DNA of 64,000 nucleotides, from NCBI GenBank assembly GCA_030704795.1, contig JAUYCZ010000028.1, positions 19,202-83,201 of the forward strand, given 5' to 3'. The translations under genes were made by a program, and so were the position numbers. The DNA is from a bacterium (GTDB taxonomy: Bacteria > Patescibacteriota > Minisyncoccia > Minisyncoccales > GWA2-46-15). Below, in pieces: positions 351-57,061 of the stretch. The notes beneath the pieces were generated by a model, which did no database searches, was not told the DNA's origin, and saw nothing but the letters and a program-made list of their open reading frames with translations. The first letter of the stretch is position 1. Every line of letters starts with the position of its first letter.

Positions 351-354
351 AGGC

Positions 355-392
355 AAAACCCCCGGTCCAATGGATTGGGGGTTCGTCTTTTT
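355..392 (+). terminator. Rho-independent terminator
   Basis: Stem AACCCCC (357-363) / GGGGGTT (377-383), then a T-run. Confidence 0.7.
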
Positions 393-410
393 ATCCGCCG
401 CTCCTTAGTA

Positions 411-439
411 TTGACGAAATTAAACATTTATGCTATAAT
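411..439 (+). promoter_or_regulatory. Near-consensus sigma70-type promoter (cassette copy 1)
   Basis: TTGACG (411-416), 17-nt spacer, TGCTATAAT (TATAAT 434-439). Confidence 0.7.
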
Positions 440-456
440 AGTCGTATCGAAGAGTG

Positions 457-498
457 AGAAAAGGATAGGGTTTTGTCCGTATCTTTTTCTGGCTCTTT
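457..498 (+). promoter_or_regulatory. Conserved 5' leader hairpin plus GGCTCTTT box (copy 1)
   Basis: AGAAAAGGATAGGG pairs with TCCGTATCTTTTTCT. A homologous hairpin with compensatory changes lies at 1864-1902. Confidence 0.5.
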
Positions 499-544
499 GG
501 CAAAATAATAATCTGTATCGACACATTCCGATAAGGAGGATGAT

Positions 545-1750
545 ATGTCTGGTTGGCCTTCGGCCGTCGAGTACGTTTCCGCGGTCCAGAACCCCCCGAT
601 CTGCTTCGACGACTCAGACCTGAAAGGTGGGCAGCCCAAGCTCACTTCCCTCGGTCTGCCGGTGTGTGCCTCGGGCAATTTCGCCACCGTCTTCCGCATG
701 GAGAACGGTGCCGCGACTTTTGCTGCGCGGTGCTTCACCCGGCCCGTCGTCGCAGACCAACAACAACGATACGCCGAGATCAGCAAGTATTTCTCGGGCG
801 TGTCCCTCGGCGCCTTGGTGGCGTTCGAGTACCTCATCAAGGGGATCCAGATCGCTGGACAATGGTATCCCCTCCTCAAGATGCAATGGGTAAAAGGCAA
901 GCGTCTCGACACCGAAGTCGAAAGTCGAGTCGGCAATCCCAAAGGACTTGAAGACTTGGCAACGGAGTGGCGCAGCTTGATGAAAGATCTGCGCGCCAAT
1001 CACATCAGCCACTGCGACCTGTCGCATGGCAACGTGATGTACAACGGCGGTTATCTGTTGATAGATTATGATGGAAGTTGGGTGTCTGCTTTAGCCGGAA
1101 CAAACTCTGGCGAGAATGGTCATCCTAACTTTCAACATCCGGAAAGGGTCAGCGCGGGCTATTACGAGGAGAACACCGATTCCTTTGCCGCGTTGGTAAT
1201 CTATCTGTCGCTGTTGGCACTGAGGTCCGACTCGTCCCTGTGGCCGACGTACAGCAACGGCGACAATCTGATCTTTACCGCCGCCGACTTCAAGGCCCCA
1301 GGAACGACGCCGATCTGGGCGCGTCTGAAAGTGAGCCCGGATGCCGAGGTTGTTCGGTTAACCGAAGAGCTGCAAAAGTTCTGCGGTTGGCCGGTAAGTT
1401 CCGTCCCGGATCTCGAGACGATCCTGACTCAACAACCTTATCCGCAGCCGGCAACGCCGTACACTCCGAGTACGCCTCGTCCCCGGGCCGCTCCGCCTCC
1501 TCGCCCCAGAACTCCTACAATGCCGATACCCGTGGCTCCAGCACCACGGCCGGTCACCACGCCATTGCCGCCGCCACTCCGGCCGGCGATGGCTCAACTC
1601 GCGACCTGTCCCAATTGCGGTACAGCCAGTCGGGCGGGCAGCAAGTTCTGCGCCAAATGCGGTTACTCCGTTGTGACAACAACGTGTCCGCATTGCGCTC
1701 AGACGACCGCTGTCCGCACCTTCTGTGCCCATTGTGGTCAGAGGTTGTGA
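545..1750 (+). CDS. Atypical protein-kinase-like protein with Pro-rich linker and C-terminal double zinc ribbon
   Basis: AAGGAGG RBS at 533-539. Gly-loop-like ASGNFATVF, catalytic loop HCDLSHGN and DFG-equivalent IDYDG. C-terminal CPNCG..CAKCG and CPHC..CAHCG pairs. Confidence 0.7.
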   Translation: MSGWPSAVEYVSAVQNPPICFDDSDLKGGQPKLTSLGLPVCASGNFATVFRMENGAATFAARCFTRPVVADQQQRYAEISKYFSGVSLGALVAFEYLIKGIQIAGQWYPLLKMQWVKGKRLDTEVESRVGNPKGLEDLATEWRSLMKDLRANHISHCDLSHGNVMYNGGYLLIDYDGSWVSALAGTNSGENGHPNFQHPERVSAGYYEENTDSFAALVIYLSLLALRSDSSLWPTYSNGDNLIFTAADFKAPGTTPIWARLKVSPDAEVVRLTEELQKFCGWPVSSVPDLETILTQQPYPQPATPYTPSTPRPRAAPPPRPRTPTMPIPVAPAPRPVTTPLPPPLRPAMAQLATCPNCGTASRAGSKFCAKCGYSVVTTTCPHCAQTTAVRTFCAHCGQRL

Positions 1751-1753
1751 GAG

Positions 1754-1797
1754 AAAACCCCCGATTCGTCGCCAGATGGACCGGGGGTTTGATTTTT
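1754..1797 (+). terminator. Rho-independent terminator
   Basis: Stem AAACCCCCG (1755-1763) / CGGGGGTTT (1782-1790), then GATTTTT. Confidence 0.7.
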
Positions 1798-1815
1798 AGA
1801 GTGGGCCATTTGATA

Positions 1816-1844
1816 TTGACAAAATAAAAAATGTATGCTATAAT
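1816..1844 (+). promoter_or_regulatory. Consensus sigma70-type promoter (cassette copy 2)
   Basis: TTGACA (1816-1821), 17-nt spacer, TGCTATAAT (TATAAT 1839-1844). Closely matches the promoter at 411-439. Confidence 0.7.
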
Positions 1845-1863
1845 TTTGGCATTAGGAAGAGTA

Positions 1864-1902
1864 AGAAAAGGAGAGAATGTTTCTCTATTTTTCTGGCTCT
1901 TT
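1864..1902 (+). promoter_or_regulatory. Conserved 5' leader hairpin plus GGCTCTTT box (copy 2)
   Basis: AGAAAAGGAGAGAA pairs with TTTCTCTATTTTTCT, followed by GGCTCTTT. Confidence 0.5.
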
Positions 1903-1960
1903 CTCAACTCAATACTCAATCGGAATCGAAACCAGAATATTCAAGAAAGGATGGTGGACC

Positions 1961-2764
1961 ATGAACTGCCCGAACTGCAACGCCCCAGTTTTACCCACAG
2001 ACCAATTCTGCACGGCCTGTGCCCAAACCCTTCAGCCGCAACCTCCCCCGCAACCCCAACCCCAAGCACAGCCACAACCTCAGGCGCAACCCCAACCGCA
2101 ACAACGCCGTTTCGTCTTCGGCAATCTGACTCTCGTTGCCATCTTCGGCGGCCTGATCGGATTGTGCATTCTGATCTCGGTCGTTCTGTTCCTTCTCGTG
2201 GGACAGAGCGGAACGAGTACGGCATCTCCGGCGCCGGTTGGGCCCTCGCCTACGCCCCGGATCGTTGTTCTGCCTCCGGCTGGCGCTACCCTGGCTCCAA
2301 CGGCAGTCGCGCCCCTGGCGCCTTCGCCAGCAATCTCGGGCGATCACCCGATCATCATGACTGGCGGGGCGAGCAACCCGGTCGGACAGATGCGGTACAC
2401 GACCGCTCTGCCCAACAGCGTCTGTTCGGGAGGCTGCGGGACGTTCGCAGGCACCGTTGTGCTCCGGCAAGTCCGGGTCACGGGCGCCAACGAATTCGTC
2501 GTTGATGTGGAAATCACTATCACCGACGTTAGCGGCGACCCATGGCTCTTCAACAACGGGCAAGGCGACATCGTCTTTGAGGTAGCGGGGACCAAGTTCA
2601 CCCCGACGGGAAACCGGAATCTGCCCACGCAGGTCACGGCCAAAGGAACTTTCAGTGGCTATCTGACCTTCGCGGGTCGAATACCGTTGGGTTCTGGGTC
2701 GTATCCTGTGAAATTGAGCATTCCGTCGCGACTTTCCCAGCCATTAGAAGGATGGCTAAAATAG
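1961..2764 (+). CDS. Zinc-ribbon / PQ-rich linker / single-TM protein with extracytoplasmic beta-rich domain (DUF4352-like)
   Basis: The ATG at 1961 gives MNCPNCNAPV..CTAC. A (PQ)n linker and the TM segment LTLVAIFGGLIGLCILISVVLFLL follow. The 1877 start would read through the leader hairpin, so I reject it. Confidence 0.6.
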   Translation: MNCPNCNAPVLPTDQFCTACAQTLQPQPPPQPQPQAQPQPQAQPQPQQRRFVFGNLTLVAIFGGLIGLCILISVVLFLLVGQSGTSTASPAPVGPSPTPRIVVLPPAGATLAPTAVAPLAPSPAISGDHPIIMTGGASNPVGQMRYTTALPNSVCSGGCGTFAGTVVLRQVRVTGANEFVVDVEITITDVSGDPWLFNNGQGDIVFEVAGTKFTPTGNRNLPTQVTAKGTFSGYLTFAGRIPLGSGSYPVKLSIPSRLSQPLEGWLK

Positions 2765-2778
2765 TCGCAAAAATAAAA

Positions 2779-2815
2779 GGGCGCGTTCGAAGTACGAACG
2801 CGCTCTTATATTTTC
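2779..2815. terminator. Bidirectional hairpin terminator at the island boundary
   Basis: GGGCGCGTTCG / CGAACGCGCTC stem with T-rich tracts on both strands, between convergent genes. Confidence 0.7.
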
Positions 2816-3216
2816 TATTGAACCGGTAGGTTCGGCGGTGGCTTAGGTTCGGACAATTCCGGCTCTTTCAATTCTTCGGCGATCTCGGCCATTCTTTGGC
2901 GAAAAGGATTCGGGGTTTCAGGAACCGGCGGAGGCGCTGGCGGCATTATTGGTCTGAATGGAGGGGGCATTAAAGGCCTGGGCACGGGTGGCATGGGTGG
3001 CGGCGGGACGATAACTGGCTGAGGTAAAACTGGAGACGCTTGAGCCGGTTCTGGCGCGACCGACGCTGGCGCGGGCGGAGCAATGGGTTTTTGCGGCTCG
3101 GGCGGTGTCGTCACGGGCAGCGACGGCTTGATAAGGGGTTTCTTGTCTTTTCGTGAGCGTTGATAGAAAAAAATGCCGAGCGAAACTCCCAAAAGAATTA
3201 AGAAAAAAAGTGTCAT
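2815..3216 (-). CDS. Proline-rich membrane-anchored hypothetical protein
   Basis: N-terminal TM segment MTLFFLILLGVSLGIFFY, then long PPxP tracts. Confidence 0.5.
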   Translation of the reverse strand: MTLFFLILLGVSLGIFFYQRSRKDKKPLIKPSLPVTTPPEPQKPIAPPAPASVAPEPAQASPVLPQPVIVPPPPMPPVPRPLMPPPFRPIMPPAPPPVPETPNPFRQRMAEIAEELKEPELSEPKPPPNLPVQ

Positions 3217-3226
3217 GGTTAAGTTT

Positions 3227-4678
3227 TTAGCTATTGTTCATTTTCCCTTTTAGATTCGGGCTTGTCAATAAAAGCGGCAGCTGGTAGATGTCGCCGGCAC
3301 CCATCACTACGAGGACTTCTTCACTCCGGAGATTTTTTTTGAGGTATGGCGCTGTTTCTTTGAGCGTGGGGATATACAATGTCTTTATATCTTGTATCTT
3401 GTATTTTGTATTTTGTATTTTTGAGATGGCTAAGGCCAGTTTTTTGGAGCTGACTTTCTTTTTGATGGTTGGACTTTCGCGGCCGGCAACGCTATAGATA
3501 TCAATCAGAATTAATTTGTCGATTGGCGCTTGACTCAAGACTCTGACAAAGTCTTTGAAGAGGTGGTAAGTTCTCTGATATTGATGGGGCTGGAAAACGC
3601 AGCTAATCTTTTTTCGGGGATATTTTTCCCGAACGGCTTTGAGCGTCACCTCAATTTCGGTCGGATGATGAGCGTAATCACTAACAATTATTATCTTCCG
3701 CGTTGTTCCGCGTAGTTCAGCGGTCGTGATTTCGAATCGGCGCCAGGCGCCGCGATATTCTCCCAAAGCCCTAAAGCTGATTTTGTCAGGAATTTTTAAG
3801 ATTCTGGCCGTGGCCAGCGCCGCCAAAGCATCTGCCAAAATGTGTTCCCCGGGAATTTTGAGAATCTTTTTTAGTTTTTTGGAGTCGCGCGATTTTGATA
3901 ATTGAAAATTTATAATTGAAAATTGATTGGAAATTGCCCCTCGGTCCTGAGCTCGGGGTCGAAGGAGTAATTGAAAATTGGAAATTAACTTCCGGGTATT
4001 TTCATCGTTTTTATTGATAACTAAATACCCTTTTTTCGGCAAATGTCTAATAAATTTCTTGAAGACTTTGATGATGTTGCTAAGGTTTTTAAAGTAGTCC
4101 AGGTGATCTCTGTCGATCGTGGTCAAAACAATTATCTGGGGCCAATAATTCAAAAAAGAACTTTTGTATTCATCCGCCTCAATGACCAGGTACTGGGATT
4201 TTCCCGGCCGATAGTTGCTGTCACCGAATTCTTTGAGCTTGGTGCCGACAATGACGGTTGGATCCAGCCCCGCCTTAATCAAAATCAAAGAAATTATGGC
4301 GGTAGTCGTGCCCTTGCCGTGGGTGCCGCAGACGGCAATGGTGAAATAGTTCTTAGTCAGCTTACCCAAGGCCTGAGGATAACTTTGGCATTTAATCTTT
4401 AATTGTTTTGCCCTTTTTAATTCCGCGTTCTGGTTTTGAATGGCCGGGCTGTAAATCACCAAATCTGGCCTCTTTGCCCTATCTTTTGCTTTGAGGTTTG
4501 GGTTGACCACTCTTTTGTCATTGGGCCCGAAGAAAATCTTGGCACCGGCCTTTTCCAGTCCCCGGCTGATTTCCGAAGGCTCCAAATCCGAGCCCGTCAC
4601 CTGATGATTTTGAGACAAATAATGTCGGGCGAGAGCCGAAACGCCAATACCGTTGATACCGATAAAATGGAGGCGCAT
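3227..4678 (-). CDS. murC: UDP-N-acetylmuramate--L-alanine ligase
   Basis: N-terminal HFIGINGIGVSALA and the Mur-ligase P-loop GTHGKGTTT. Length 483 aa. Confidence 0.9.
   Translation of the reverse strand: MRLHFIGINGIGVSALARHYLSQNHQVTGSDLEPSEISRGLEKAGAKIFFGPNDKRVVNPNLKAKDRAKRPDLVIYSPAIQNQNAELKRAKQLKIKCQSYPQALGKLTKNYFTIAVCGTHGKGTTTAIISLILIKAGLDPTVIVGTKLKEFGDSNYRPGKSQYLVIEADEYKSSFLNYWPQIIVLTTIDRDHLDYFKNLSNIIKVFKKFIRHLPKKGYLVINKNDENTRKLISNFQLLLRPRAQDRGAISNQFSIINFQLSKSRDSKKLKKILKIPGEHILADALAALATARILKIPDKISFRALGEYRGAWRRFEITTAELRGTTRKIIIVSDYAHHPTEIEVTLKAVREKYPRKKISCVFQPHQYQRTYHLFKDFVRVLSQAPIDKLILIDIYSVAGRESPTIKKKVSSKKLALAISKIQNTKYKIQDIKTLYIPTLKETAPYLKKNLRSEEVLVVMGAGDIYQLPLLLTSPNLKGKMNNS
3936..3968. 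repeat. GC-rich mini-insert (repeat family 1) inside murC, in frame
   Basis: Core CCCCTCGGTCCTGAGCTCGGGGTCGAAGG encodes LRPRAQDRGA. It is flanked by the direct duplication AATTGAAAATTG..TTGGAAATT (3914-3935 and 3969-3986). Confidence 0.6.
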
Positions 4679-8454: not shown

Positions 8455-8460
8455 TTCCCG

Positions 8461-8525
8461 TCATTATTCATTTTTAATATTGTCATTACTCATTTTAATA
8501 TTGTCATTATTCATTTTTAATATTG
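8461..8525. repeat. Tandem repeat of 22, 21 and 22 bp
   Basis: TCATTATTCATTTTTAATATTG at 8461-8482, 8483-8503 (1-nt deletion, 1 substitution) and 8504-8525. The third unit encodes the last obg codons and its stop. Confidence 0.9.
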
Positions 8526-9466
8526 TTCAAGATTTTTTCTACCTTTTTCAGACTTTTCGGATCATTGACGGAGATGGCCATGACCCGGGGATCTATTTTT
8601 TTGAGTGCTGATAATTTTTTATTGAGCTCGGCTGGCGTAACCAGGTCGCTTTTTGTCAGAAAAAGACGCTCGGGCTTTTCAAGAAGCGCCATGTTCCACG
8701 CGCCTAGTTCTTTACGGATAGTCTCATAGTCTTTCAAAGGATCGGAAGATTCCGCGGAAATGAGGTGGAAAAGAATATGCGTCCGCTCAATGTGGCGGAG
8801 GAATTTGATACCCAACCCCCGGCCGCTTGATGACCCCTCGATAAGCCCGGGAATATCGGCGAGAATGAGTTCGTAGTAGGCGCCCAGGTTGGGTTCAAGC
8901 GTGGTAAACAGATAATTGGCGACTTTGCTTTTGGCATTGGTGAGCTCGTTGAGCAAGCTTGATTTGCCGACATTCGGTAATCCCACCAAGCCGATATCGG
9001 CAATAAACTTGAGTTCGAGCCGGAAGGCAAAATTCTCTCCGGGCAGACCCGGCTGCGCAAACCGCGGCGTCGTGTTGGTTGAAGAACGAAATTGGAAATT
9101 ACCTTTTCCGCCCAGACCGCCTTTGGCGAGGAGGATCCGCTCGCCGGTCTTTTCAAAATTAATTTCGCGGCCGCTGATAAGATTGTGGGCGACAGTTCCA
9201 ATAGGAAGTTTTAGGATGAGATCACCGGCGTTGTAACCATCGCGGAACTGGCCGCGGCCGTCCCGGCCGTCCTCCGCCGAAAACACCTTTTTAAAGCGGA
9301 ACTGCCGGAGGGCGGTAAGATCGGAGACGCCTTCGGCATAGACGCTGCCGCCTCGGCCGCCCGACCCGCCGACCGGCCCGAGGCTTTTCATGTTTTTATT
9401 AAAGGCCACCGCGCCCTTGCCGCCGTGGCCCGCCCTTATTTCTATTTCGACGTCGTCAATCAACAT
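8507..9466 (-). CDS. obg: GTPase Obg
   Basis: Gly-rich Obg fold (AGHGGKGAVAF, GGSGGRGGSV) and G1 motif GLPNVGKSS. Confidence 0.9.
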   Translation of the reverse strand: MLIDDVEIEIRAGHGGKGAVAFNKNMKSLGPVGGSGGRGGSVYAEGVSDLTALRQFRFKKVFSAEDGRDGRGQFRDGYNAGDLILKLPIGTVAHNLISGREINFEKTGERILLAKGGLGGKGNFQFRSSTNTTPRFAQPGLPGENFAFRLELKFIADIGLVGLPNVGKSSLLNELTNAKSKVANYLFTTLEPNLGAYYELILADIPGLIEGSSSGRGLGIKFLRHIERTHILFHLISAESSDPLKDYETIRKELGAWNMALLEKPERLFLTKSDLVTPAELNKKLSALKKIDPRVMAISVNDPKSLKKVEKILNNIKNE

Positions 9467-11413: not shown

Positions 11414-11484
11414 CTGCGGGACTAGGATTCGAACCTAGATAAGCAGATCCAAAATCTGCTGTCCTACCATTAGACGATCCCGCA
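11414..11484 (-). tRNA. tRNA-Gln (UUG)
   Basis: Cloverleaf read by eye: acceptor UGCGGGA/UCCCGCA, anticodon loop UUUUGGA, T-arm GGTTCGAATCC. No encoded CCA. Confidence 0.85.
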
Positions 11485-25405: not shown

Positions 25406-25419
25406 CATCAAAAGAAAAA

Positions 25420-25446
25420 GTCGGACATCGCATGTCCGACTTTTTA
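25420..25446. terminator. Bidirectional hairpin terminator (sequence recurs at 55010)
   Basis: GTCGGACAT-CGC-ATGTCCGAC plus TTTTT, between convergent genes. Confidence 0.75.
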
Positions 25447-26988
25447 TGATTTGAACTTCTCCAGAGCTTGCCGGCAGAATTCCTCATGGCCGGGATAGAC
25501 ATTTCTGGTTTTCATTTCGTCTAGTTTCAAGAATTCCATCTTCTGGCCTTCAAAGCATTCTGTTTTTTGTTGCCCGTCGTAGACGGTCCAGAAAATGTGG
25601 CGCGTGATCTTCTGGCCGCCCGGCAGAGAATAAACTTCTTCGGCCAAAAGACTTAAAGAATCAGCCTCGTAGCCCGTTTCTTCTTTTAACTCGCGGCGCG
25701 CGGCGGTTTCGGGTTCTTCACCCACCTCGACTTTGCCGCCGGGCAGGCACCAGCAATTCGGAAAAACGATATTAACTTTATTATCCCGGTGTTGCATCAG
25801 GACGGCGCCGTCTTCTCTGATCAAAATCACGCCGGCTGATTTCAACCCTTCTTCTTTGGCAAAACCCAGTTGTCCGAGCAACAAGAGGCCTAAAGCCCCC
25901 CAGACAAAGGCTAAAATCCAATCAGGGCGGGAAAGATTCATCAAAGGAATTAGGGTTAAAGCGGCCAAAAAAGACCCCGAATGAAGAGCGATTTCTCGGG
26001 CCAGGAAAAACTCCAGACGCTTGGTCTGGACCGCCGTATAATAGCTCAGACGGTCTAAAGGGATCCAGATGAAAATTCCGACTAATTCATAAATCAAATT
26101 AACCGAGAAAAGGAAAAACGGTCCGCCGAAAAACGGGCGGACCAGCCAGTTGATAAAGTTCAAAGGAACGCTCCAGCGGAAAACTTTGTTGCCAAAACGG
26201 TCCGTTAGCTTGCCGGCCGCCATCAATAAAATAAATGAAGCCAGGAGCGAGACCGAGGTGATGGCGCCGAGGAATTGGTAAGAACCGATGAGAAGGAAAA
26301 CATAGAGCGGCCAGATAATGTCATAGACCTGGGTGGTGATACCCGCGCCGAAATAGCCCAGAAAGAGACGAGGCATCTGTTTAAAAGGCAGGTTTTCTTT
26401 CAGGGTTTTTAAAGAAATATCCGGAAACTTGAATTCATACTTATCGAAGAAAAGAGGGAAACCCGAAATGATAATCAGGAAAAGACCCAATAAATAAAGA
26501 GGGGTAAAACCGGCCGTTTGAATGATTAAGCCGCCGATGATCGGTCCGGCAATAACGGCGAGTTTGGCCACGAGGCTGATTCGGGCCGCGTCCTGGCCAA
26601 AGTTCATTTTGTGATCCGAGCCAACAACGCTCAGATGAAACGGCAACCAATAAAGGGGCACCGCCAATCCCCAGAAGATGGCCGCCCAAAGGAAAAAGAC
26701 AGGATTTCTTTCGGCCAGAATTAAAAAAATAATGAAGAGGGCGCGGGGAATGGTTCCGGAAAAAGCAATCCAGTCTGAGCCGAACTTGGCCACCAAGCGG
26801 GCAATCGGCAAGGTAAAAACCACGATGGTCAGATTGAAAACCAAATAGAAGGCCAGAACCCAGCCCAATCCCTGGGTAATCTTAAAGATGTAGAGCGGGA
26901 TGAAGATTCCCACCAGAGAAAAGCCGAATTGCAGCAGAAAGTTGCTGGCATATAGACCGCCCAAACCAGGCAAGAAGATCCTTTTCAT
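25444..26988 (-). CDS. MFS-type transporter fused to a C-terminal NUDIX hydrolase domain
   Basis: About 12 TM segments, then the Nudix box GGKVEVGEEPETAARRELKEETGY. I prefer the ATG at 26988; the track start at 27069 is GTG. Confidence 0.7.
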   Translation of the reverse strand: MKRIFLPGLGGLYASNFLLQFGFSLVGIFIPLYIFKITQGLGWVLAFYLVFNLTIVVFTLPIARLVAKFGSDWIAFSGTIPRALFIIFLILAERNPVFFLWAAIFWGLAVPLYWLPFHLSVVGSDHKMNFGQDAARISLVAKLAVIAGPIIGGLIIQTAGFTPLYLLGLFLIIISGFPLFFDKYEFKFPDISLKTLKENLPFKQMPRLFLGYFGAGITTQVYDIIWPLYVFLLIGSYQFLGAITSVSLLASFILLMAAGKLTDRFGNKVFRWSVPLNFINWLVRPFFGGPFFLFSVNLIYELVGIFIWIPLDRLSYYTAVQTKRLEFFLAREIALHSGSFLAALTLIPLMNLSRPDWILAFVWGALGLLLLGQLGFAKEEGLKSAGVILIREDGAVLMQHRDNKVNIVFPNCWCLPGGKVEVGEEPETAARRELKEETGYEADSLSLLAEEVYSLPGGQKITRHIFWTVYDGQQKTECFEGQKMEFLKLDEMKTRNVYPGHEEFCRQALEKFKS

Positions 26989-42339: not shown

Positions 42340-42365
42340 GATATATCGGGCTACTGCCCGCTATA
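42340..42365. repeat. TATAGCG-hairpin-CGATATATC motif (family 4 copy)
   Basis: GATATATCGGGCTACTGCCCGCTATA, in the rplJ 5' region. Confidence 0.6.
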
Positions 42366-42470
42366 AAAAACTGCGGGTTTTGCCGCAGACAAGAGAAAAT
42401 AACCTTTTTCACCTAAGCAGGGAATTAAGCCTTACGGCACCCGCTGTCTACGGCGACTGAAATCATCCTA
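42365..42470 (-). promoter_or_regulatory. Possible ribosomal protein L10 leader with attenuator hairpin
   Basis: The minus strand reads GCCGTAGACAGCGGGTGCCGTAAGGCTTAATTCCCTGCTTAGG, then CTGCGG-CAAAAC-CCGCAG plus TTTTTT (42388-42365). The position upstream of rplJ fits. Confidence 0.45.
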
Positions 42471-42476
42471 ACAGAA

Positions 42477-43109: not shown

Positions 43110-45335
43110 ATGAAATTAAGTTTGAATAAGAAAAAATGGCTGAGTCTGGTCTTGGCCGCCCTCTTTCTGACATTCCTGGCCAGTTTTTATCTGCAGCATC
43201 AGCTCGTCTCGCTTTATCGCCAGCAAGCCTCCTCTTTGGTCGAAGACCGGGAAGGTCGTGTTATTGCCATCCGGCCCAATCGCCAGGGATATTTTAACCG
43301 TCCAGTTGTTAATCTGCCCGCTAGGATGGCCGATCTTTTAGTTAAAAAGGAAGACCGATTTTTTTACTACCATAACGGCGTCAACCCGATTAGTATTATC
43401 AAAGCCTCTTTTGGCTATTTAGGGTTGGGCCAGAGAAAGGCCTCAAGCACCATTAGCCAACAGTTGGCCAAAATTCTTTTAGGCAACGAGCTGCGGCGAA
43501 CCGGGCAGAATAAACTCAAGGAAACCCTCTACGCTTTGAGTCTGGAGATTTTCCAGCCCAAGCGAGAAATCTTGAAAATGTATGCCAACTCCATTTATTT
43601 TGGCTATCAGGCCCAAGGGATCTTTGAGGCCAGCCGTCTTTACTTTGGGACCGATCCCGAAATGCTCACCGAGGGGCAGGTCTTACAACTTTTAGCCACG
43701 ATTTCTGAACCGGCCGAAAACAATCCCGCCAGCGAGAATAATGAGAAAATCAGTTTAGCCATGGCTAAAAAATTCATTTTTTCTGAAGAAGGCTTGAGTT
43801 TCAGTCAAGCTGGCCAAGTCAGAGAGCAGATGAAAAAGGTTTCGCATGCGGACGATCTTTTCTTCGAATTAAAATCGTTTTTGACGGAGCCGAAAACAAT
43901 TTGCCAAACGACCTTAGACCGAGATCTGACCAGAAAAATCAGAGAAATAGTCCAACGGAACATCGAAAGCTTAAAGATAGAGAATGCCCGGAACGCGGCC
44001 GTGGTAGTTTTAAAGCTGCCCGAAAATGAGATTTTGAGTCTCATCGGTTCGCCCGATCCCAATTCCTTTGAGTCGGGTTATCAGATTAATATGCTGATGG
44101 AATTGCGACCCATTGGCTCTACCATTAAGCCTTTTATCTATCTCAAGGCCTTTGAAAAAGGGTTGAGGCCCTATACCCTGGTTGAGGATAGAGAGTACAA
44201 ATATATTACCGCCTTAGGTTTCCCTCTTTATCCTAAGAATTTTGACTATCAATACCGCGGCCGGGTCAAACTTAACTACGCCCTCTCCAATAGCCTGAAC
44301 GTGCCGGCGGTCAAAGTCCTGGAATACGTCGGTTTGGAGGATTTCTATCAATTCTGGGGAAAGGAAATGGGCTTTAAACCGAAGCAGCCCTGGAACAGCT
44401 ACCAGCTAGGTATTGCCTTGGGGGGTTTGGAAATGAGCCTCTGGGACCTGGCCAGATACTTTACCATCTTTCCCAACCAGGGCTGGCTGAAAGACGTTAA
44501 GGTTTTTCAGTCGGGAGACTGTTTTCAGCCAAAGCCAGAAACAACCAAAGAGATTGCCCAACCCGGTTTCATCCAGCTGGTCAACAAGATTCTCAATGAC
44601 CGCCAGACCGGCGTGGAACAGTTCGGCATGAAGAGCGAGCTCAATCTCTTTCAGGAAAACTATGCCCTAAAGACCGGCACTTCGCGCGATTTCAGGGACA
44701 GTTGGATTATTGGTTATACCCCCGACTTCCTGGTCGGTGTCTGGGTAGGCAATGCCGACAACTCTCCCACCGACAAGATTTCTGGCCAACAAGGCGCGGG
44801 CCTGATCTTTTCCAATATTATGGAGCTGCTCTTGAATTCCCGATACAACTCATCGAGCCTGAAGGCTCCTCAGAGCCTGAACGGCAAAAAAACTCCTTTT
44901 GACTTCAGTCTCGTCAAAGATTTCCCATCCCTCGAGGGTACTCGGGACTTTCAGTCCCTCGACTCGGCTCGGGACTTTCAGTCTGATCAGGGCCTTGATT
45001 GGGGTCTCCAGGGTGACGATTATAAGAAAACCCAAAATCTTTTATTGGCGCAAGATACTGCTTTGATATTATTGCCGCACGACGGAGATTCTTTTCTGCT
45101 CGAGCCCAATACTAAAATCATCCTGCGCGCCCGCCAGGCCGTCGACTGGTTTGTTAACAACGAGTTTATCGGTCACGGCCAGGAGCAGATTTTCATTCCC
45201 CCGACTCCCGGCAACTATCAAGTCAAAGCCCAATCCCCCACTAGTCAGGCTGAAAGTCCCGAGTATCCACGAGGGGCTGGAAGCCCCGAGCGCTCCCGAG
45301 GGGAGGAAGTTTCCATTTCTGTCCTGGGCGAGTAG
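43110..45335 (+). CDS. pbpC: Bifunctional class A penicillin-binding protein, PBP1C-type
   Basis: GT51 motifs EDRFFYYHNG and STISQQLAK. Transpeptidase motifs STIKPF, SNS and KTGTS. C-terminal BiPBP_C-like segment W.VNNEFIG...PGNYQVKA. AAGGAGG RBS. Confidence 0.85.
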   Translation: MKLSLNKKKWLSLVLAALFLTFLASFYLQHQLVSLYRQQASSLVEDREGRVIAIRPNRQGYFNRPVVNLPARMADLLVKKEDRFFYYHNGVNPISIIKASFGYLGLGQRKASSTISQQLAKILLGNELRRTGQNKLKETLYALSLEIFQPKREILKMYANSIYFGYQAQGIFEASRLYFGTDPEMLTEGQVLQLLATISEPAENNPASENNEKISLAMAKKFIFSEEGLSFSQAGQVREQMKKVSHADDLFFELKSFLTEPKTICQTTLDRDLTRKIREIVQRNIESLKIENARNAAVVVLKLPENEILSLIGSPDPNSFESGYQINMLMELRPIGSTIKPFIYLKAFEKGLRPYTLVEDREYKYITALGFPLYPKNFDYQYRGRVKLNYALSNSLNVPAVKVLEYVGLEDFYQFWGKEMGFKPKQPWNSYQLGIALGGLEMSLWDLARYFTIFPNQGWLKDVKVFQSGDCFQPKPETTKEIAQPGFIQLVNKILNDRQTGVEQFGMKSELNLFQENYALKTGTSRDFRDSWIIGYTPDFLVGVWVGNADNSPTDKISGQQGAGLIFSNIMELLLNSRYNSSSLKAPQSLNGKKTPFDFSLVKDFPSLEGTRDFQSLDSARDFQSDQGLDWGLQGDDYKKTQNLLLAQDTALILLPHDGDSFLLEPNTKIILRARQAVDWFVNNEFIGHGQEQIFIPPTPGNYQVKAQSPTSQAESPEYPRGAGSPERSRGEEVSISVLGE
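44929..44982 (+). repeat. Family-1 repeat, 2 x 27 bp tandem, in frame in pbpC
   Basis: CCCTCGAGGGTACTCGGGACTTTCAGT followed by CCCTCGACTCGGCTCGGGACTTTCAGT. These encode SLEGTRDFQ and SLDSARDFQ. Confidence 0.85.
45250..45303 (-). repeat. Family-1 repeat, 2 x 27 bp, inverted orientation, in frame in pbpC
   Basis: CTGAAAGTCCCGAGTATCCACGAGGGG matches the reverse complement of 44929-44955 at 24 of 26 positions. The second unit is more diverged. Confidence 0.85.
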
Positions 45336-45338
45336 TTT

Positions 45339-45359
45339 GTGCGAAGCTTAGCTTCGCAC
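45339..45359 (+). terminator. Hairpin after pbpC (part of the left island end)
   Basis: GTGCGAAGC-TTA-GCTTCGCAC. No T-run, followed by TTGACA (45365-70). Confidence 0.45.
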
Positions 45360-45532
45360 GATCCTTGACATTTCAATGACTTTATGAAAAACTATCGTAT
45401 CTCTCCTTGTTGGCTTTCTGGTAATAAATCTTGTTGCTAGAAAGCCGGCAAGGATGACTGGCCCGTTGGTTCCGCAAGGCGGAATACGGTCAAAAGCGAT
45501 CTTTCCCAGCCCAAGGGGCAAGGAGTAGAAAA

Positions 45533-46096
45533 ATGGGAAAAAGTAGCTTGAAAGGGAATGAACTGACTTCCCTAGTGGAACGAGCGTCAGCGCTCCAAAA
45601 AGCCAGTAGAGGGTACCGAGACGGCGCTGCTGAAAGCGCCCGGTTGGCCCTCGACGAGTTAGTCCTTCAGATTCTGCGAGACCACCTCGAACAGGTAGTC
45701 TTGCGTCTGGATCCCAGGAAGTCACAGGCTTGGGATGACTTCTACGCAGTTCTAGAAGTCGAGGCGAACTCGGTGGTTCTGCGGATGCCAGTTCCTAAAC
45801 TCAAGTCGAAAGACTCAGAGCTGGCAAACAGGATTCGGACGAAGATCGTCCGGGAGGAAGAAATGGAAGCAACAATCATTGCGGTGATACTCGTCGTAGG
45901 AGGGATTGGGTTCATCGTAAAGATGCTTCGTCAAAGAGACGACGGAAATGGGTACGACTACATCGGTTACCTTGGCGCTGATGGCAAACCTTGCGACGCA
46001 ATTGGGTTAGCACGGTTTTGTCCCACCAAGAAAGAAGCCGAGGCCGTTGCTCGAGCGTTCGGCTACAAAGTAGAACGCGAGGAGATGAAACGATGA
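45533..46096 (+). CDS. GC-rich hypothetical protein with one central TM segment (187 aa)
   Basis: AAGGAG RBS 7 nt upstream. TM segment ATIIAVILVVGGIGFIV. No motif recognised. Confidence 0.55.
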   Translation: MGKSSLKGNELTSLVERASALQKASRGYRDGAAESARLALDELVLQILRDHLEQVVLRLDPRKSQAWDDFYAVLEVEANSVVLRMPVPKLKSKDSELANRIRTKIVREEEMEATIIAVILVVGGIGFIVKMLRQRDDGNGYDYIGYLGADGKPCDAIGLARFCPTKKEAEAVARAFGYKVEREEMKR

Positions 46097-46350
46097 AGAT
46101 CATCTTAAACGGTTTGAACGTCACTCTCGCTGAAGTTTTGACTAGACTTCAGGAAGAGGGCGCGCCTCGCTTCGCGGTAGCCCTATCGCGAAGTGATTAC
46201 GCCAAGAATCCCAACGAAAGAAAGCCAGGTAACGCCGTGATCGTTATGACCGCTGCTGAATTCCAGAAGTTAGAAGAAGAGCAACGACATACGGTCGAAA
46301 TGGTATTGGCAGCTCAACAGTTGGGTGCCCAAGTTGTTTTCCGTAGCTAG
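46093..46350 (+). CDS. GC-rich hypothetical protein (85 aa)
   Basis: ATGA start/stop overlap with the upstream ORF, and GAGGAG upstream. A terminator follows. Confidence 0.55.
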   Translation: MKIILNGLNVTLAEVLTRLQEEGAPRFAVALSRSDYAKNPNERKPGNAVIVMTAAEFQKLEEEQRHTVEMVLAAQQLGAQVVFRS

Positions 46351-46362
46351 TAGAGCTTAAAG

Positions 46363-46405
46363 GAGACTCAACGCCTTAGAAAAAGGAGTTGAGTCTTTTT
46401 ATTTT
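46363..46405 (+). terminator. Rho-independent terminator
   Basis: GACTCAAC (46365-72) / GTTGAGTC (46388-95), then TTTTTATTTT. Confidence 0.65.
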
Positions 46406-46430
46406 GGCGAGTCGCCAAGGACTGCGGCAT

Positions 46431-46544
46431 AAGCTGATTAAACAGCTATTGTTTTACGACAAAATAGCTCCCGGCCAATATCAAATCAAAGCCCAATCCC
46501 CCACCGCCCAGTCGGAAGAAATCACGATTTTTCTCAACCAGTAA
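46431..46544 (+). pseudogene. Orphan remnant of an alternative/ancestral pbpC 3' end
   Basis: Translates to KLIKQLLFYDKIAPGQYQIKAQSPTAQSEEITIFLNQ*. Shares the identical 19-nt TCAAAGCCCAATCCCCCAC with 45223-45241. No start codon or upstream ORF. Confidence 0.75.
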
Positions 46545-46552
46545 ATAAATCA

Positions 46553-46574
46553 GCACCCGAGATTTCTCGAGTGC
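46553..46574. terminator. Hairpin terminator (presumed original pbpC terminator, also serves the minus-strand small-ORF operon)
   Basis: GCACCCGAG-ATTT-CTCGAGTGC. A T-rich tract follows on the minus strand. Confidence 0.55.
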
Positions 46575-46598
46575 CGATTCGATTTGGCGTCGGTTGCG

Positions 46599-46739
46599 TT
46601 ATTCTTCGATGAAAAAGAGCGACGTGAAACCGGCGGCGAGCAACCCTTCGGTGGGGACGACATGAAAGATGCCGTTGATGATGAGCCCCAGCGCGAGCGC
46701 TCCGTACACGATCTTGCGCAACTGTCGATTGGTCAACAT
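46599..46739 (-). CDS. Small hydrophobic protein (46 aa), not in the ORF track
   Basis: GGAGGTG RBS 7 nt before the ATG. Sequence MLTNRQLRKIVYGALALGLIINGIFHVVPTEGLLAAGFTSLFFIEE. A terminator follows. Confidence 0.5.
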   Translation of the reverse strand: MLTNRQLRKIVYGALALGLIINGIFHVVPTEGLLAAGFTSLFFIEE

Positions 46740-46781
46740 GGCCAATCACCTCCTTTGAAACTCAGATTGTCGTTCGTTCGG

Positions 46782-46946
46782 CTAGCGAGTCGGCGGCGCG
46801 CCCGGTCGACAATGGGCGCAACGAAAAAGGTGCTTGTGTCGGCGTCCGGGCTTTGCCAGACAAGTAAACCCATGTTTACACATCACGCTACACTTTCCAT
46901 TGTCTCGGGACCGCCGCGGCCGATTCTTCCGCAGAAAATCGAACAT
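46782..46946 (-). CDS. Small basic Cys-rich (zinc-ribbon-like) protein (54 aa), not in the ORF track
   Basis: AAGGAGG 5 nt before the ATG. Sequence MFDFLRKNRPRRSRDNGKCSVMCKHGFTCLAKPGRRHKHLFRCAHCRPGAPPTR. Consensus promoter upstream. Confidence 0.45.
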   Translation of the reverse strand: MFDFLRKNRPRRSRDNGKCSVMCKHGFTCLAKPGRRHKHLFRCAHCRPGAPPTR

Positions 46947-46981
46947 CCATACCTCCTTGGTCTGGGATACGTACTGGATAA

Positions 46982-47009
46982 ATTATAGCACTAATAATAT
47001 AAATGTCAA
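46982..47009 (-). promoter_or_regulatory. Consensus sigma70-type promoter
   Basis: Minus strand TTGACA (47009-04), 16 nt, TGCTATAAT (TATAAT 46987-82). Confidence 0.65.
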
Positions 47010-47047
47010 GAGTTTGTGCGAAGCGAAATTTCGCCTAGCACAAATCA
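47001..47047. repeat. Right island end, an imperfect inverted copy of 45334-45373
   Basis: Shares AAATGTCAAG, GTGCGAAGC and GCACAAA blocks with the reverse complement of the left end. AGTTTGTGCGAAGC (47011-24) is also a direct repeat of 45334-47. Confidence 0.6.
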
Positions 47048-47049
47048 AT

Positions 47050-47081
47050 CAAAAAGCACACATCATGGATCGATGTGTGCT
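47050..47081 (-). terminator. Rho-independent terminator
   Basis: AGCACACATC/GATGTGTGCT stem, followed on the minus strand by TTTTTGATT. Confidence 0.7.
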
Positions 47082-47096
47082 CTGTTTGAAGGGCGA

Positions 47097-47381
47097 TCAC
47101 TTCACTGGGAGGAACGTGATTACCACGAGGAGGGTGCCACCGATCAAGCAGGCGCCCGCCAGGAAGTACCAGACGAGTGACGTCTGATGGTAAGCGGTAG
47201 CATAATTTGGCGCCGCTTTTGGCGTCCCTCGTCCACTTGCCTCTGATGCGCCACGCTGATACTCATCTGGTCCATAGCGGTGGATGTCCGTTTCCGCTTT
47301 TCGGCTTTCTTTGCGCCCTTCGCGCCAAAAGAAAACGCCTACCAGAAAAAGGATCGCCCCGATAATTTGCAATGTTAGCAT
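47097..47381 (-). CDS. GC-rich two-TM small protein (94 aa)
   Basis: ATG at 47381 preceded by AAGGAG. TM segments LQIIGAILFLVGVFFW and LVWYFLAGACLIGGTLLVVITFL. Confidence 0.55.
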   Translation of the reverse strand: MLTLQIIGAILFLVGVFFWREGRKESRKAETDIHRYGPDEYQRGASEASGRGTPKAAPNYATAYHQTSLVWYFLAGACLIGGTLLVVITFLPVK

Positions 47382-47420
47382 TGCACACTCCTTTCCTTTC
47401 TGCGGTTTATCCGCATAAAA

Positions 47421-47449
47421 ATTATACAATACTTAATTAAATTAGTCAA
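47421..47449 (-). promoter_or_regulatory. Near-consensus sigma70-type promoter
   Basis: Minus strand TTGACT (47449-44), 17 nt, TGTATAAT (TATAAT 47426-21), then leader hairpin TGCGG-ATAAA-CCGCA. Confidence 0.65.
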
Positions 47450-47506
47450 TACATCATCAAAAATCTCCGATTAGTATCGGGAATATTAGGCTCAGAGAAT
47501 AATTGA

Positions 47507-55004: not shown

Positions 55005-55009
55005 AATAA

Positions 55010-55029
55010 GTCGGACATCGCATGTCCGA
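55010..55029. repeat. Second copy of hairpin GTCGGACATCGCATGTCCGA
   Basis: 20 of 20 nt identical to 25420-25439. Lies between the pcm stop and the mltG start. Confidence 0.85.
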
Positions 55030-55656
55030 TCATTTATTTATTAAAGGTACAAAAATGAATCCTGGATATTCGCGTTTTTCGAATTCGTTTTCGCTCTTTT
55101 TGGTGAATAACCAAATTGAGTTTTGGATCGGCGTCACGATCCGGCCGCCGATTTTCAGTTGCTTTTTCCAAGCCCGGGGCAGTTTTTCAGTCTCATCTTG
55201 AAAGCTAGCCGAAACAAGAATCTTGTCGTACGGCGCTTCTTTCTCGTACCCCTTTGATCCGTCAGCACAAATAATATTGACTATCCCCTTTTGGACAAAG
55301 CCATATTTATCGACATTTTTTATGCCGAATTGGGCTAACTCCGGCACGATTTCCATTCCGATAACTTTGCCCTTTAGCCCGACAATCTCGGCTAGTAATG
55401 CTGTCGTATAGCCGGACCCCGAGCCGATGTCCAATATTTTTTGGCCCGGCTCCGGTTGCAGCAATTCCAGCATAAAAACCACCACCAAGGGTTGCGAAAT
55501 AGTTTGTTCGTGTCCGATGGTCAGAGCTTCGTCGAGCTCGGCCAAGTCCTTGAGATCTTCCGGAAGGAAATCAACCCGTTTGATTTTGCGGAAAGCTTCA
55601 ATTATCCGCGGCGTTTTAAGCCAGTCCTGGGAAATAAGCGAGTCAATTAAATCCAT
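55030..55656 (-). CDS. pcm: Protein-L-isoaspartate O-methyltransferase
   Basis: TISQPLVV and the SAM motif ILDIGSGSGYTTALLA. Confidence 0.85.
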   Translation of the reverse strand: MDLIDSLISQDWLKTPRIIEAFRKIKRVDFLPEDLKDLAELDEALTIGHEQTISQPLVVVFMLELLQPEPGQKILDIGSGSGYTTALLAEIVGLKGKVIGMEIVPELAQFGIKNVDKYGFVQKGIVNIICADGSKGYEKEAPYDKILVSASFQDETEKLPRAWKKQLKIGGRIVTPIQNSIWLFTKKSENEFEKREYPGFIFVPLINK

Positions 55657-56242: not shown

Positions 56243-57061
56243 TTATTTAATAAATTGTCTTCCCCACCAGAAGGTAACTATATAAATAGCCGGCAGGGCA
56301 ACAACACTTATATACCATACTGCGCGCCCAAATCTTGGACCGCCGAATTCGGCTAGGCGCACGAGAAGCACGAAAGACAAAAACCAGCCGACGAGGAGCC
56401 CGGCGCCGGGCCACTCCGGATGTACAAGTTCTCTGCCTCCGCCGACTTTATACCATTTTACCCACCCGCCCCACTTCATAATAAAAACGTGGAGAAGGAT
56501 GAGAATAAAGGCAAGGCGTACGCCCCAGTATTGCCACTGCCACCACCTTTCTCTACCGATGGCCGCCATGGCACGGTCATTAGAGATGAAAAAAATAACA
56601 ACCAGAACGATGGTAGCCGCGAGACCAAAAACAAAAGGCCAATTAAGCGTTCCTAAAGATCCCGATAAGGGAAATTTTGACGGCAGAAAAAAAAGAGAGA
56701 CAATTCCATGGGTAAGAGCAAGAAAAAAAGCGGCGATTCCCAGTTCTTTTCGGTATTGAACATAGCGATCAGGGAAAGAAAAAAAGCGGCTTAATGGGCC
56801 GATGAGAAGAACAATGCCCAGAAGCACTGCGGCGACACCGGCAAAAACTTTGTTGGCGATATAAAGATCGTAATAGCCGCGGCGGAAAAAAAGATATACT
56901 GATAAGATCGCAAACAGAACCGCGGCCGCCACCAATGCCGCGCCGTACTGCTGAAATTGATATTTCCAATTTCGAGCGAAGCGAGAAACAAGGTTCTCGC
57001 CGAAGGCAAGGTTCTTATTTCGAGCGAAGCGAGAAACAAAGTTCTTATTTCGTAGATTCAC
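56243..57061 (-). CDS. Ferric-reductase-like / MsrQ (YedZ)-like heme-binding membrane protein, start uncertain
   Basis: Six TM segments with conserved His (LALTHGIVSLFF, ILLHVFIM). There is no internal ATG. GTG at about 57061 or the track start at 57130 are the options. Confidence 0.45.
   Translation of the reverse strand: MNLRNKNFVSRFARNKNLAFGENLVSRFARNWKYQFQQYGAALVAAAVLFAILSVYLFFRRGYYDLYIANKVFAGVAAVLLGIVLLIGPLSRFFSFPDRYVQYRKELGIAAFFLALTHGIVSLFFLPSKFPLSGSLGTLNWPFVFGLAATIVLVVIFFISNDRAMAAIGRERWWQWQYWGVRLAFILILLHVFIMKWGGWVKWYKVGGGRELVHPEWPGAGLLVGWFLSFVLLVRLAEFGGPRFGRAVWYISVVALPAIYIVTFWWGRQFIK
56969..57045. repeat. Family-3 repeat, two 29-bp copies with a 48-bp period, in frame in the CDS
   Basis: ATTTCGAGCGAAGCGAGAAACAAGGTTCT (56969-97) and ATTTCGAGCGAAGCGAGAAACAAAGTTCT (57017-45). 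They encode VSRFARN twice. Confidence 0.85.

Follow-up and report, generated by a model that had tools for sequence, protein, structure and literature searches.

A covariation-supported RNA hairpin ahead of the genes of a TerY-P island in Patescibacteria

The intergenic spacers of a TerY-P gene island in a 64,000-nt stretch of Patescibacteria DNA (referred to as the window, to whose numbering all coordinates refer unless a contig is named by its L-number) carry a long hairpin of about 55 nt, with a 23-bp stem interrupted by one or two 1x1 mismatches. Copies of this hairpin recur in related islands, and the base changes among them covary, which makes it a real candidate for an RNA motif, linked to the TerY-P island in Patescibacteria. 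It is tentatively interpreted here, with confidence just short of even, as a cis-acting, post-transcriptional determinant of mRNA 5′-end stability and processing, and possibly as a substrate of RNase III.

A first-pass annotation of the window had proposed that two intergenic regions, at 351-544 and 1751-1960, share one build. This is borne out: the two spacers are identical in 80% of their aligned columns, and all of the elements then listed were found at or near the places assigned to them. The first spacer follows the gene of a PP2C-like phosphatase and the second that of a Ser/Thr kinase, and they are composed as follows:

357-394, + strand: GC-rich stem-loop AACCCCCGG..TTGGGGGTT followed by CGTCTTTTTA, dG -22.6 kcal/mol; terminator-like 3′ end of the PP2C gene
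411-439, + strand: sigma-70-type promoter, TTGACG-17-TATAAT with TATGC (TRTG, extended -10), 11/12 matches, TG present
447-500, + strand: hairpin copy W1, dG -30.5 kcal/mol, z = -8.2, covariance model 67.8 bits
501-544, + strand: unstructured A/U-rich spacer containing the semi-conserved AATCTGTAT..ACACATTCC and the Shine-Dalgarno sequence AAGGAGG at 533-539
1755-1797, + strand: GC-rich stem-loop AAACCCCCG..CGGGGGTTT followed by GATTTTT, dG -23.7 kcal/mol, z = -5.6; terminator of the kinase gene
1816-1844, + strand: sigma-70-type promoter, TTGACA-17-TATAAT, extended -10, 12/12 matches
1854-1904, + strand: hairpin copy W2, dG -22.6 kcal/mol, z = -4.4, covariance model 72.5 bits
1905-1960, + strand: spacer with the Shine-Dalgarno sequence AAGGATGG at about 1947-1954

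The GC stem-loops proper occupy 357-383 and 1755-1790, each followed by a T-run, and transcription is predicted to start at about 445-447 downstream of the first promoter and at about 1851-1852 downstream of the second. W1 combines a purine-rich 5′ arm and a pyrimidine-rich 3′ arm in a 23-bp stem with 1x1 mismatches and a 6-nt loop, and W2 repeats this architecture with a differing apical stem. The conserved blocks GAAGAGTRAGAAAAGGA (449-465 and 1856-1872) and TTTTTCTGGCTCTTT (484-498 and 1888-1902) pair with one another on folding. The hairpins were originally placed at 457-490 and 1864-1894; these 34- and 31-nt segments are the inner parts of a longer stem that runs over 447-500 and 1854-1904, because the GAAGAGT that had been regarded as flanking sequence pairs with GGCTCTT. 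The original count of two cassettes also proved too low, as a third, W0, lies 380-600 nt to the left of the window start. It occupies positions 1023-1242 of L001, a 5.6-kb contig which was retrieved by exact look-up of the kinase protein and which extends 1618 nt to the left of the window. W0 fills the spacer upstream of the PP2C gene that ends at window position 350, and consists of a stem-loop, a TTGACA-17-TATAAT promoter, the hairpin AAAGAGCGAGAAAAG..TTTTTCTAGCTCTTT and a Shine-Dalgarno sequence.

Close homologues of the island, with proteins 56-63% identical, were found in just two further lineages, namely L002 and the M lineage (L006, L007 and L003). Together, the three island lineages hold seven copies of the hairpin in the same intergenic positions: W0, W1 and W2 in the genome of the window, L2a and L2b in L002, and M0 and M1 in the M lineage. 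The L002 island sits at the same chromosomal place, adjoining the gene of a Pro-rich membrane protein and murC. In its TerY-PP2C and PP2C-kinase spacers a GC stem-loop is followed directly, with no promoter in between, by a homologous long hairpin, GAAGAACAAGAGAAG..TTTCTCTTGYTCTTT, while its third spacer has a promoter and no hairpin. In the M lineage, the TerY-PP2C spacer (M0) contains stem-loop, promoter and hairpin, and the PP2C-kinase spacer (M1) contains stem-loop and hairpin without a promoter. A promoter thus accompanies four of the seven island copies (W0, W1, W2 and M0) and is missing from three (L2a, L2b and M1), so that the hairpin is the constant element and the sigma-70 promoter an optional one. 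The original description of a terminator-promoter-leader cassette therefore holds for the elements themselves, but not for their being an obligatory unit. Ahead of the promoter-less copies, the GC stem-loop lacks an adjacent U-tract, which fits read-through from the preceding gene. In three-way alignments of orthologous spacers the hairpin is the main conserved block, even though the proteins of these lineages are only 56-63% identical. Several contigs of the M lineage (L003, L006 and L007) end near the repeats; these ends were judged to be assembly breaks at repeated k-mers, and not transcript ends.

One further detail of W2 may be recorded here. Its loop contains an ATG (1877), preceded by AAGGAG, which shares the reading frame of the downstream gene, annotated as starting at 1961 and encoding a zinc-ribbon membrane protein. 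The agreement in frame is probably due to chance, because L002 has no hairpin in the corresponding spacer.

Every copy folds as a single long hairpin, at dG values of -22 to -30 kcal/mol and z-scores of -3.9 to -8.2 relative to shuffled sequences. Covariation was scored over the 23-bp helix in an alignment, A3, of nine copies: the seven from the islands and two probable homologues, from contigs L037 and L026, which are described below. In this alignment 91.3% of the cells are paired, as compared to 56-70% when the partners are slid against each other and 83.1% in shuffles. Both sides have changed in 9 of the 23 pairs, and 21 cells carry double-sided changes against 8.7 in shuffles. The covariation score of 0.342 compares with 0.185 in shuffles and was reached by none of 500. 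RNAalifold, moreover, predicts the same helix independently. The three compensatory changes first noticed between W1 and W2 are recovered at columns 23/38 (U-A to G-C), 26/35 and 27/34 (both G-C to A-U). The lower stem, which had been thought to be shared, is indeed conserved, but it is not invariant between lineages and covaries as well: 11/50 changes from G-C to A-U, 12/49 from U·G to C-G, and 17/44 from A-U to G-C, while columns 13/48 pass from a mismatch to A-U or G-C.

The stem measures 23 bp in all nine copies, and its 1x1 mismatches recur at 11/50 or 13/48, at 21/40 and at 25/36. Its lower two-thirds are 72-91% identical between copies, and the apical parts 29-88%. The segments AAGA, AGA and AAG of the 5′ arm and UUU, CU and UCUUU of the 3′ arm are invariant throughout, as is the wobble pair G20·U41. 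In the genome of the window the three copies have three distinct apical sequences, all of which still pair.

The same alignment bears on which strand is selected. G·U pairs outnumber A·C combinations by 29 to 7, and this excess, together with the invariant G·U, identifies the sense-strand RNA as the molecule under selection. In seven of the nine copies folding is more stable for the sense than for the antisense strand, and in the covariance model the sense strand is ahead by about 25 bits, a difference that is partly expected of a model built on that strand. The original proposal of a selected RNA structure, whether cis-regulatory, a processing or stability signal or a protein-binding site, is accordingly supported by both the covariation and the G·U bias. 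The concern raised with it, that further copies or covariation might be wanting once more homologues were aligned, is answered by seven island copies, two probable ones elsewhere and the nine doubly changed pairs.

The exact-arm pattern AAGAGYRAGAAAAG N{12,32} TTTTTCTRGCTCTT had no match in genome, metagenome or viral contigs. A degenerate arm pattern returned 17 metagenome, 13 genome and 1 viral match, most of which were Firmicutes-type terminators or generic purine/pyrimidine hairpins and were discarded as chance occurrences. As the degenerate pattern is self-complementary, pairing of the arms in its matches is forced and is no evidence in itself, so that these matches are weaker than the island copies. 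Apical stem length, absence of a U-tail, location upstream of a co-oriented gene and taxon led to the retention of L037 and L026 as probable homologues, and of L014 as a possible one. In L037, a Patescibacteria metagenome-assembled genome, the hairpin is located between a TTGACA-17-TATACT promoter and the gene of a small membrane protein, in a divergent promoter region. In L026, a contig resembling those of the Candidate Phyla Radiation (CPR), it follows a GC stem-loop and separates two GC-rich, Cys-rich genes in an A/T-rich genome. The candidate in L014 lies between trpS and a radical-SAM gene. Neither the L037 nor the L026 copy adjoins TerY-P genes in the available sequence. Given these two probable copies, the element is not strictly island-specific.

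The L026 locus (2117-4608, - strand) is of some interest in its own right. Within a contig of 37% GC, the two genes reach 58-59% GC and encode Cys/Asp-rich secreted proteins with CTDC repeats of the Dictyostelium type. They are parted by the spacer with the probable hairpin, an arrangement of GC-rich foreign genes, A/T-rich spacer and hairpin like that of the TerY-P island.

A covariance model, R1, found no further copy in the window, the next best match scoring 18 bits (E = 0.25), nor did it find one in about 110 kb of sequence from four syntenic relatives. These relatives, which were reached through MurC (L042-L048), contain neither the island nor the motif. No such hairpin follows the other strong promoters of the window, and it is therefore not a general feature of the host. 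Distant homologues of the kinase and the PP2C protein (41-45% identity; L004, L005 and L008-L010) are encoded in compact operons without the hairpin. No family of Rfam 15 matched at its gathering threshold; the sole overlap, with MIR8008, scored 19.5 bits against a gathering threshold of 66 (E = 1.7) and is spurious, and L001, L002, L006 and L007 gave no Rfam matches at E <= 1. Two readings based on the Shine-Dalgarno sequence were rejected as well, one in which the 3′ arm is its complement (an anti-Shine-Dalgarno sequence) and one in which the 5′ arm forms a STAB-SD-like decoy: AAGGAG occurs in the 5′ arm of only three of the nine copies, and folds of the full leaders show no conserved alternative pairing.

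On positional grounds the hairpin is assigned to the downstream gene, because a promoter that accompanies a hairpin is found after the upstream stem-loop and before the hairpin, and because the L037 copy, at a divergent promoter region, stands between promoter and gene. In W0, W1, W2 and M0 the base of the stem follows the end of the -10 box by 7-12 nt and the predicted start by 0-5 nt, so that the primary transcript would have the hairpin right at its 5′ end, in the known geometry of a 5′ stabiliser. That geometry, with about 0-4 unpaired nt at the 5′ end, is predicted for these four copies, L2a, L2b and M1 being without a promoter. At its other side, the stem ends 36-65 nt before the start codon. 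Two helical turns are also the size class of RNase III substrates, such as T7 R1.1 and the rnc and pnp leaders. A stem of about 20-22 bp or more, often with small internal mismatches, is the structural hallmark of RNase III sites, and all nine copies have 23 bp. Given the fixed two-turn length and the small mismatches, the copies without a promoter would be accounted for as sites at which read-through RNA is processed.

Together, these features suggest how stability and processing might be combined. In the promoter-bearing copies (W0, W1, W2 and M0) the hairpin would cap the primary 5′ end and block 5′-end-dependent decay, extending the half-life of the message. In the promoter-less copies (L2a, L2b and M1) it would be made by read-through of a leaky-looking terminator, the GC stem-loop without a U-tract. 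There, the two-turn duplex would be a natural substrate for a double-strand-specific nuclease such as RNase III, whose cuts would divide the polycistronic transcript into units. By either route, each cistron would be given its own defined and protected mRNA.

Several observations weigh against this interpretation. The transcription starts are predictions. A pure 5′ stabiliser needs neither a conserved sequence nor a fixed length of 23 bp, and the conservation of the lower stem (72-91% identity) suggests a sequence-specific partner. With no promoter upstream of three island copies, the hairpin cannot always be a primary 5′ end, and the L037 stem is separated from its predicted promoter by about 37 nt. 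Furthermore, stabilisation and processing may not act together, because cleavage by RNase III usually removes or destabilises a 5′ hairpin. A regular-expression search of the window found no signature of RNase III, RNase Y or RNase E, which is uninformative given that most of the genome lies outside it.

The main rival is seriously entertained, although thought unlikely: the hairpin may be an RNA operator on each mRNA, bound by a protein that recognises both its sequence and its shape. This protein would belong to the host, or with less likelihood to the island (the zinc-ribbon kinase, for example), and would control the island genes together by repressing or activating their translation or decay, in the manner of ribosomal-protein leaders and phage coat-protein operators. 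Such a protein would account for a lower stem that is conserved in sequence and not just in pairing, with blocks invariant in nine copies and 72-91% identity, and for an invariant G·U (20/41) beside a recurrent 1x1 mismatch (21/40), which is a typical feature of protein recognition. Paralogous copies in one genome are mostly more alike than orthologous ones, as expected if they track a single protein, and the zinc ribbon of the TerY-P kinase has been speculated to bind nucleic acid (PMC11090510). However, no candidate binding protein has been identified, and the probable copies in L037 and L026, away from TerY-P genes, make an island-encoded factor less likely. The hairpin is also 40-65 nt from the Shine-Dalgarno sequence, and folds of the full leaders show no conserved alternative pairing, with the Shine-Dalgarno sequence or otherwise. 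The greater likeness of copies within a genome would also be expected of a passenger, that is, of a spacer duplicated and homogenised by gene conversion within the island, without a function of its own. The homology of whole spacers speaks for this as well. It is nonetheless very improbable, since between lineages the remainder of the spacer has diverged or been lost through promoter gain and loss and indels, whereas the hairpin has been kept with compensatory changes, and since the three apical sequences in the genome of the window differ and yet all pair.

A role in transcription itself appears improbable. The hairpin would then be a promoter-proximal pause site or attenuator, or a processive-antitermination RNA, like put of phage HK022 or the Bacillus EAR element, that promotes read-through of the GC stem-loops at gene ends. 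Each gene does end in a terminator-like GC stem-loop, with each hairpin upstream of the next one, and most copies have a run of five U after the apical stem and a complementary A-run before it, like a weak A-tract terminator. Yet the apical stems are short, A/U-rich and mismatched, and the base of the full stem is A/U-rich and is followed by GGCAAAA or CTCAACT instead of a U-tract; a consensus scan for intrinsic terminators, a class that was thereby rejected, reports only GC stem-loops (357-383 and 2777-2807) and not the long hairpins. The outer 8 bp covary (5/56, 11/50, 12/49 and 13/48), which is not required of a terminator; no alternative antiterminator fold exists, because the stem starts at about +1; and the known put and EAR elements differ in architecture, and the hairpin has no match in Rfam. 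Also quite improbable, and a shade more so, is a role at the level of DNA, be it as the operator of a dimeric repressor over the start site, as an attC-type site, or as a remnant of a promoter-carrying palindromic mobile element, such as a miniature inverted-repeat transposable element (MITE), a repetitive extragenic palindromic (REP) sequence or a Correia-like repeat. It is true that a perfect-looking inverted repeat occupies +1 to +55 of strong promoters. A symmetric operator, though, gives no reason for the conserved strand asymmetry (the G·U at 20/41 in 9/9 copies, and the 29:7 ratio), nor would its spacer need to stay self-complementary as the variable centre of the hairpin does. The conserved outer arms, small unpaired positions and variable top superficially recall integron attC sites, but the arms (AAGAGYRAG / CTDGYTCTT) lack the AAC/GTT of a GTTRRRY/RYYYAAC core, no integrase is encoded in L001 or L002, and the four genes form one functional TerY-P operon, compact in other phyla (L004), and not a series of unrelated cassettes. 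As for mobile repeats, those of the Correia type bring promoters and RNase III-cleavable hairpins into mRNAs, and W2 and M0, from different gene positions, share a near-identical segment from the -10 box to the stem (TTWGGCATTAG) which suggests copying of the cassette. Against this, just the three island copies occur in more than 65 kb (the window and L001, about 65.6 kb) and none in the approximately 110 kb from relatives, and the diverging stem tops and lack of visible target-site duplications do not fit a recently active MITE.

The setting of the hairpin is given by the genes of the island and by what closes it:

1-350, + strand: 3′ part of the PP2C-like phosphatase gene (full gene L001 1243-1968; PADLOC PP2C, E = 1.9e-36)
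545-1750, + strand: Ser/Thr kinase with C-terminal double zinc ribbon (TerY-P kinase); Pfam Pkinase, DZR and Zn_ribbon; PADLOC STK_OB, E = 3.5e-65
1961-2764, + strand: fourth island gene, protein with N-terminal zinc ribbon, Pro/Gln-rich linker, transmembrane helix and C-terminal domain of unknown function; syntenic in L002
2777-2817, + strand: bidirectional terminator that closes the island, from the consensus terminator scan

To the left of the window lies the gene of a TerY-like vWA protein (PADLOC TerY, E = 3.9e-85). The TerY-P triad is defined by three neighbouring genes, which encode a TerY-like vWA protein, a PP2C phosphatase and a Ser/Thr kinase (Anantharaman et al. 2012; Gao et al. 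2020; both as summarised in PMC11090510), and these are present here in the same order as in L004. By its annotated content, then, the island is a TerY-P triad, whose kinase carries the zinc ribbon, with an added zinc-ribbon membrane protein; it is predicted to be an anti-phage defence island. All three triad proteins are encoded, with strong PADLOC matches, and the kinase belongs to the variant with a C-terminal zinc ribbon that has been described before (PMC11090510). In other phyla, as in L004, the triad forms a compact operon with spacers of about 20 nt, whereas here the spacers are A/T-rich, 120-245 nt long, and contain a stem-loop, an optional promoter and the hairpin.

The host is classified as a member of the Patescibacteria (CPR), because its best named MurC matches are from Nealsonbacteria, Parcubacteria and Gracilibacteria. 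The island is evidently foreign and horizontally acquired, to judge from its sequence: the GC content of its genes is 57-61%, that of the spacers 39-41% and that of the remaining window 46%, and the closest named homologues outside this lineage, at 45% identity, are from Ardenticatenaceae. The site 3′ of murC and the gene of the small Pro-rich membrane protein (2765-3226; L042 11480-14000; L043-L048) is a hot spot of variable contents, with the TerY-P island here and in L002. In L042 it is occupied by another GC-rich insert, with genes for zinc-ribbon and coiled-coil proteins, and in the remaining relatives it is empty. The leader of the TerY gene (L001 60-185; L002 2496-2736) is of a different kind, being long and 69% identical between lineages. 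It contains a long-range stem, GAGATCATGCCG..CGGGATGATCTC, which in L002 is downstream of a TTGACA-17-TATAGT promoter and has no match in Rfam, and it may be a second cis-element of the island.

Elsewhere in the window, a second, slightly GC-richer patch (45200-47450; 50-52% GC) may be another acquired segment. It contains a 50-nt repeat at 45205 and 46468 (82% identical), and small genes there are preceded by two minus-strand promoters close to the consensus, at 47009-46982 (12/12) and 47449-47421 (11/12). Further repeats are three tandem units of about 21 nt (CATTAYTCATTTTTAATATTGT) in A/T-rich intergenic sequence at 8460-8526, which could be iteron-like or repeated promoter elements; two 34-nt direct repeats at 56964-57045, 91% identical and 48 nt apart, each with the palindrome TTTCGAGCGAAGCGAGAAA; and a terminator-like palindrome, AAAAAGTCGGACATCGCATGTCCGAC, found at both 25415-25447 and 55005-55037, 29.6 kb apart and at 88% identity. 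A ribosomal protein L10 leader (RF00557, 46.9 bits) lies at 42355-42471 on the minus strand, upstream of rplJ and rplL, and there are five tRNA genes, at 11414, 31678, 39072, 60201 and 60491.

Almost nothing is known of mRNA control in the Patescibacteria, which are uncultured and have reduced genomes, and a literature search found no study mapping transcription starts in these bacteria. As a cis-element that has the backing of covariation and accompanies an identifiable defence system, the hairpin offers a concrete and testable entry point. Rfam does not contain it, yet a stem-loop in a 5′ untranslated region (UTR) or between cistrons is a familiar kind of element. It also shows how a compact foreign operon, once transferred into a CPR genome, was remodelled into genes that each have signals of their own. 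A bolder proposal, decidedly unlikely in our estimation, is that it represents a previously undescribed RNA motif restricted to Patescibacteria and read by a dedicated sequence-specific factor, through which the host domesticates horizontally acquired, GC-rich and potentially toxic genes and gates them post-transcriptionally. If so, the TerY-P triad and the Cys-rich secreted proteins of L026 would be examples of gated genes, and stem-loop, optional promoter, hairpin and Shine-Dalgarno sequence would make up a portable expression adaptor inserted between the genes of foreign operons.

Among known elements, the 5′ stabiliser stem-loops of bacterial mRNAs, such as the hairpin in the ompA 5′ UTR of E. 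coli and the aprE and ermC leaders of B. subtilis, resemble the hairpin. They too are stable hairpins a few nucleotides from the 5′ end (here a predicted one), followed by an unstructured spacer and a Shine-Dalgarno sequence, and they act in cis on the downstream cistron. The ompA, aprE and ermC structures are, however, shorter and not conserved in sequence between genes, while the present hairpin always has 23 bp, is conserved in sequence in its lower part, and occurs in three copies without a promoter.

The intercistronic processing hairpins of RNase III in the early mRNA of phage T7 (R0.3-R1.3), to which the E. coli rnc and pnp leaders may be added, provide a second comparison. The T7 sites are likewise mutually homologous hairpins of about two turns with small mismatches, placed between consecutive genes and upstream of each cistron. 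They differ in having a larger asymmetric internal loop and in belonging to a single polycistronic transcript without internal promoters, whereas the hairpin described here is from a bacterium of the Patescibacteria and not from a phage, and its cleavage is a prediction.

Repeats of the Correia (NEMIS), ERIC and BOX type, lastly, are co-transcribed and form long hairpins that RNase III cuts, and they may include promoters. They resemble the present element as a module of promoter and long hairpin that is repeated in the intergenic spacers of one genome. Those repeats are nevertheless high-copy, dispersed and near-identical inverted repeats with target duplications, while the hairpin of the TerY-P island is low-copy, is confined to the island within the 64 kb of the window, and continues to pair at the top of its stem although the sequence there diverges.

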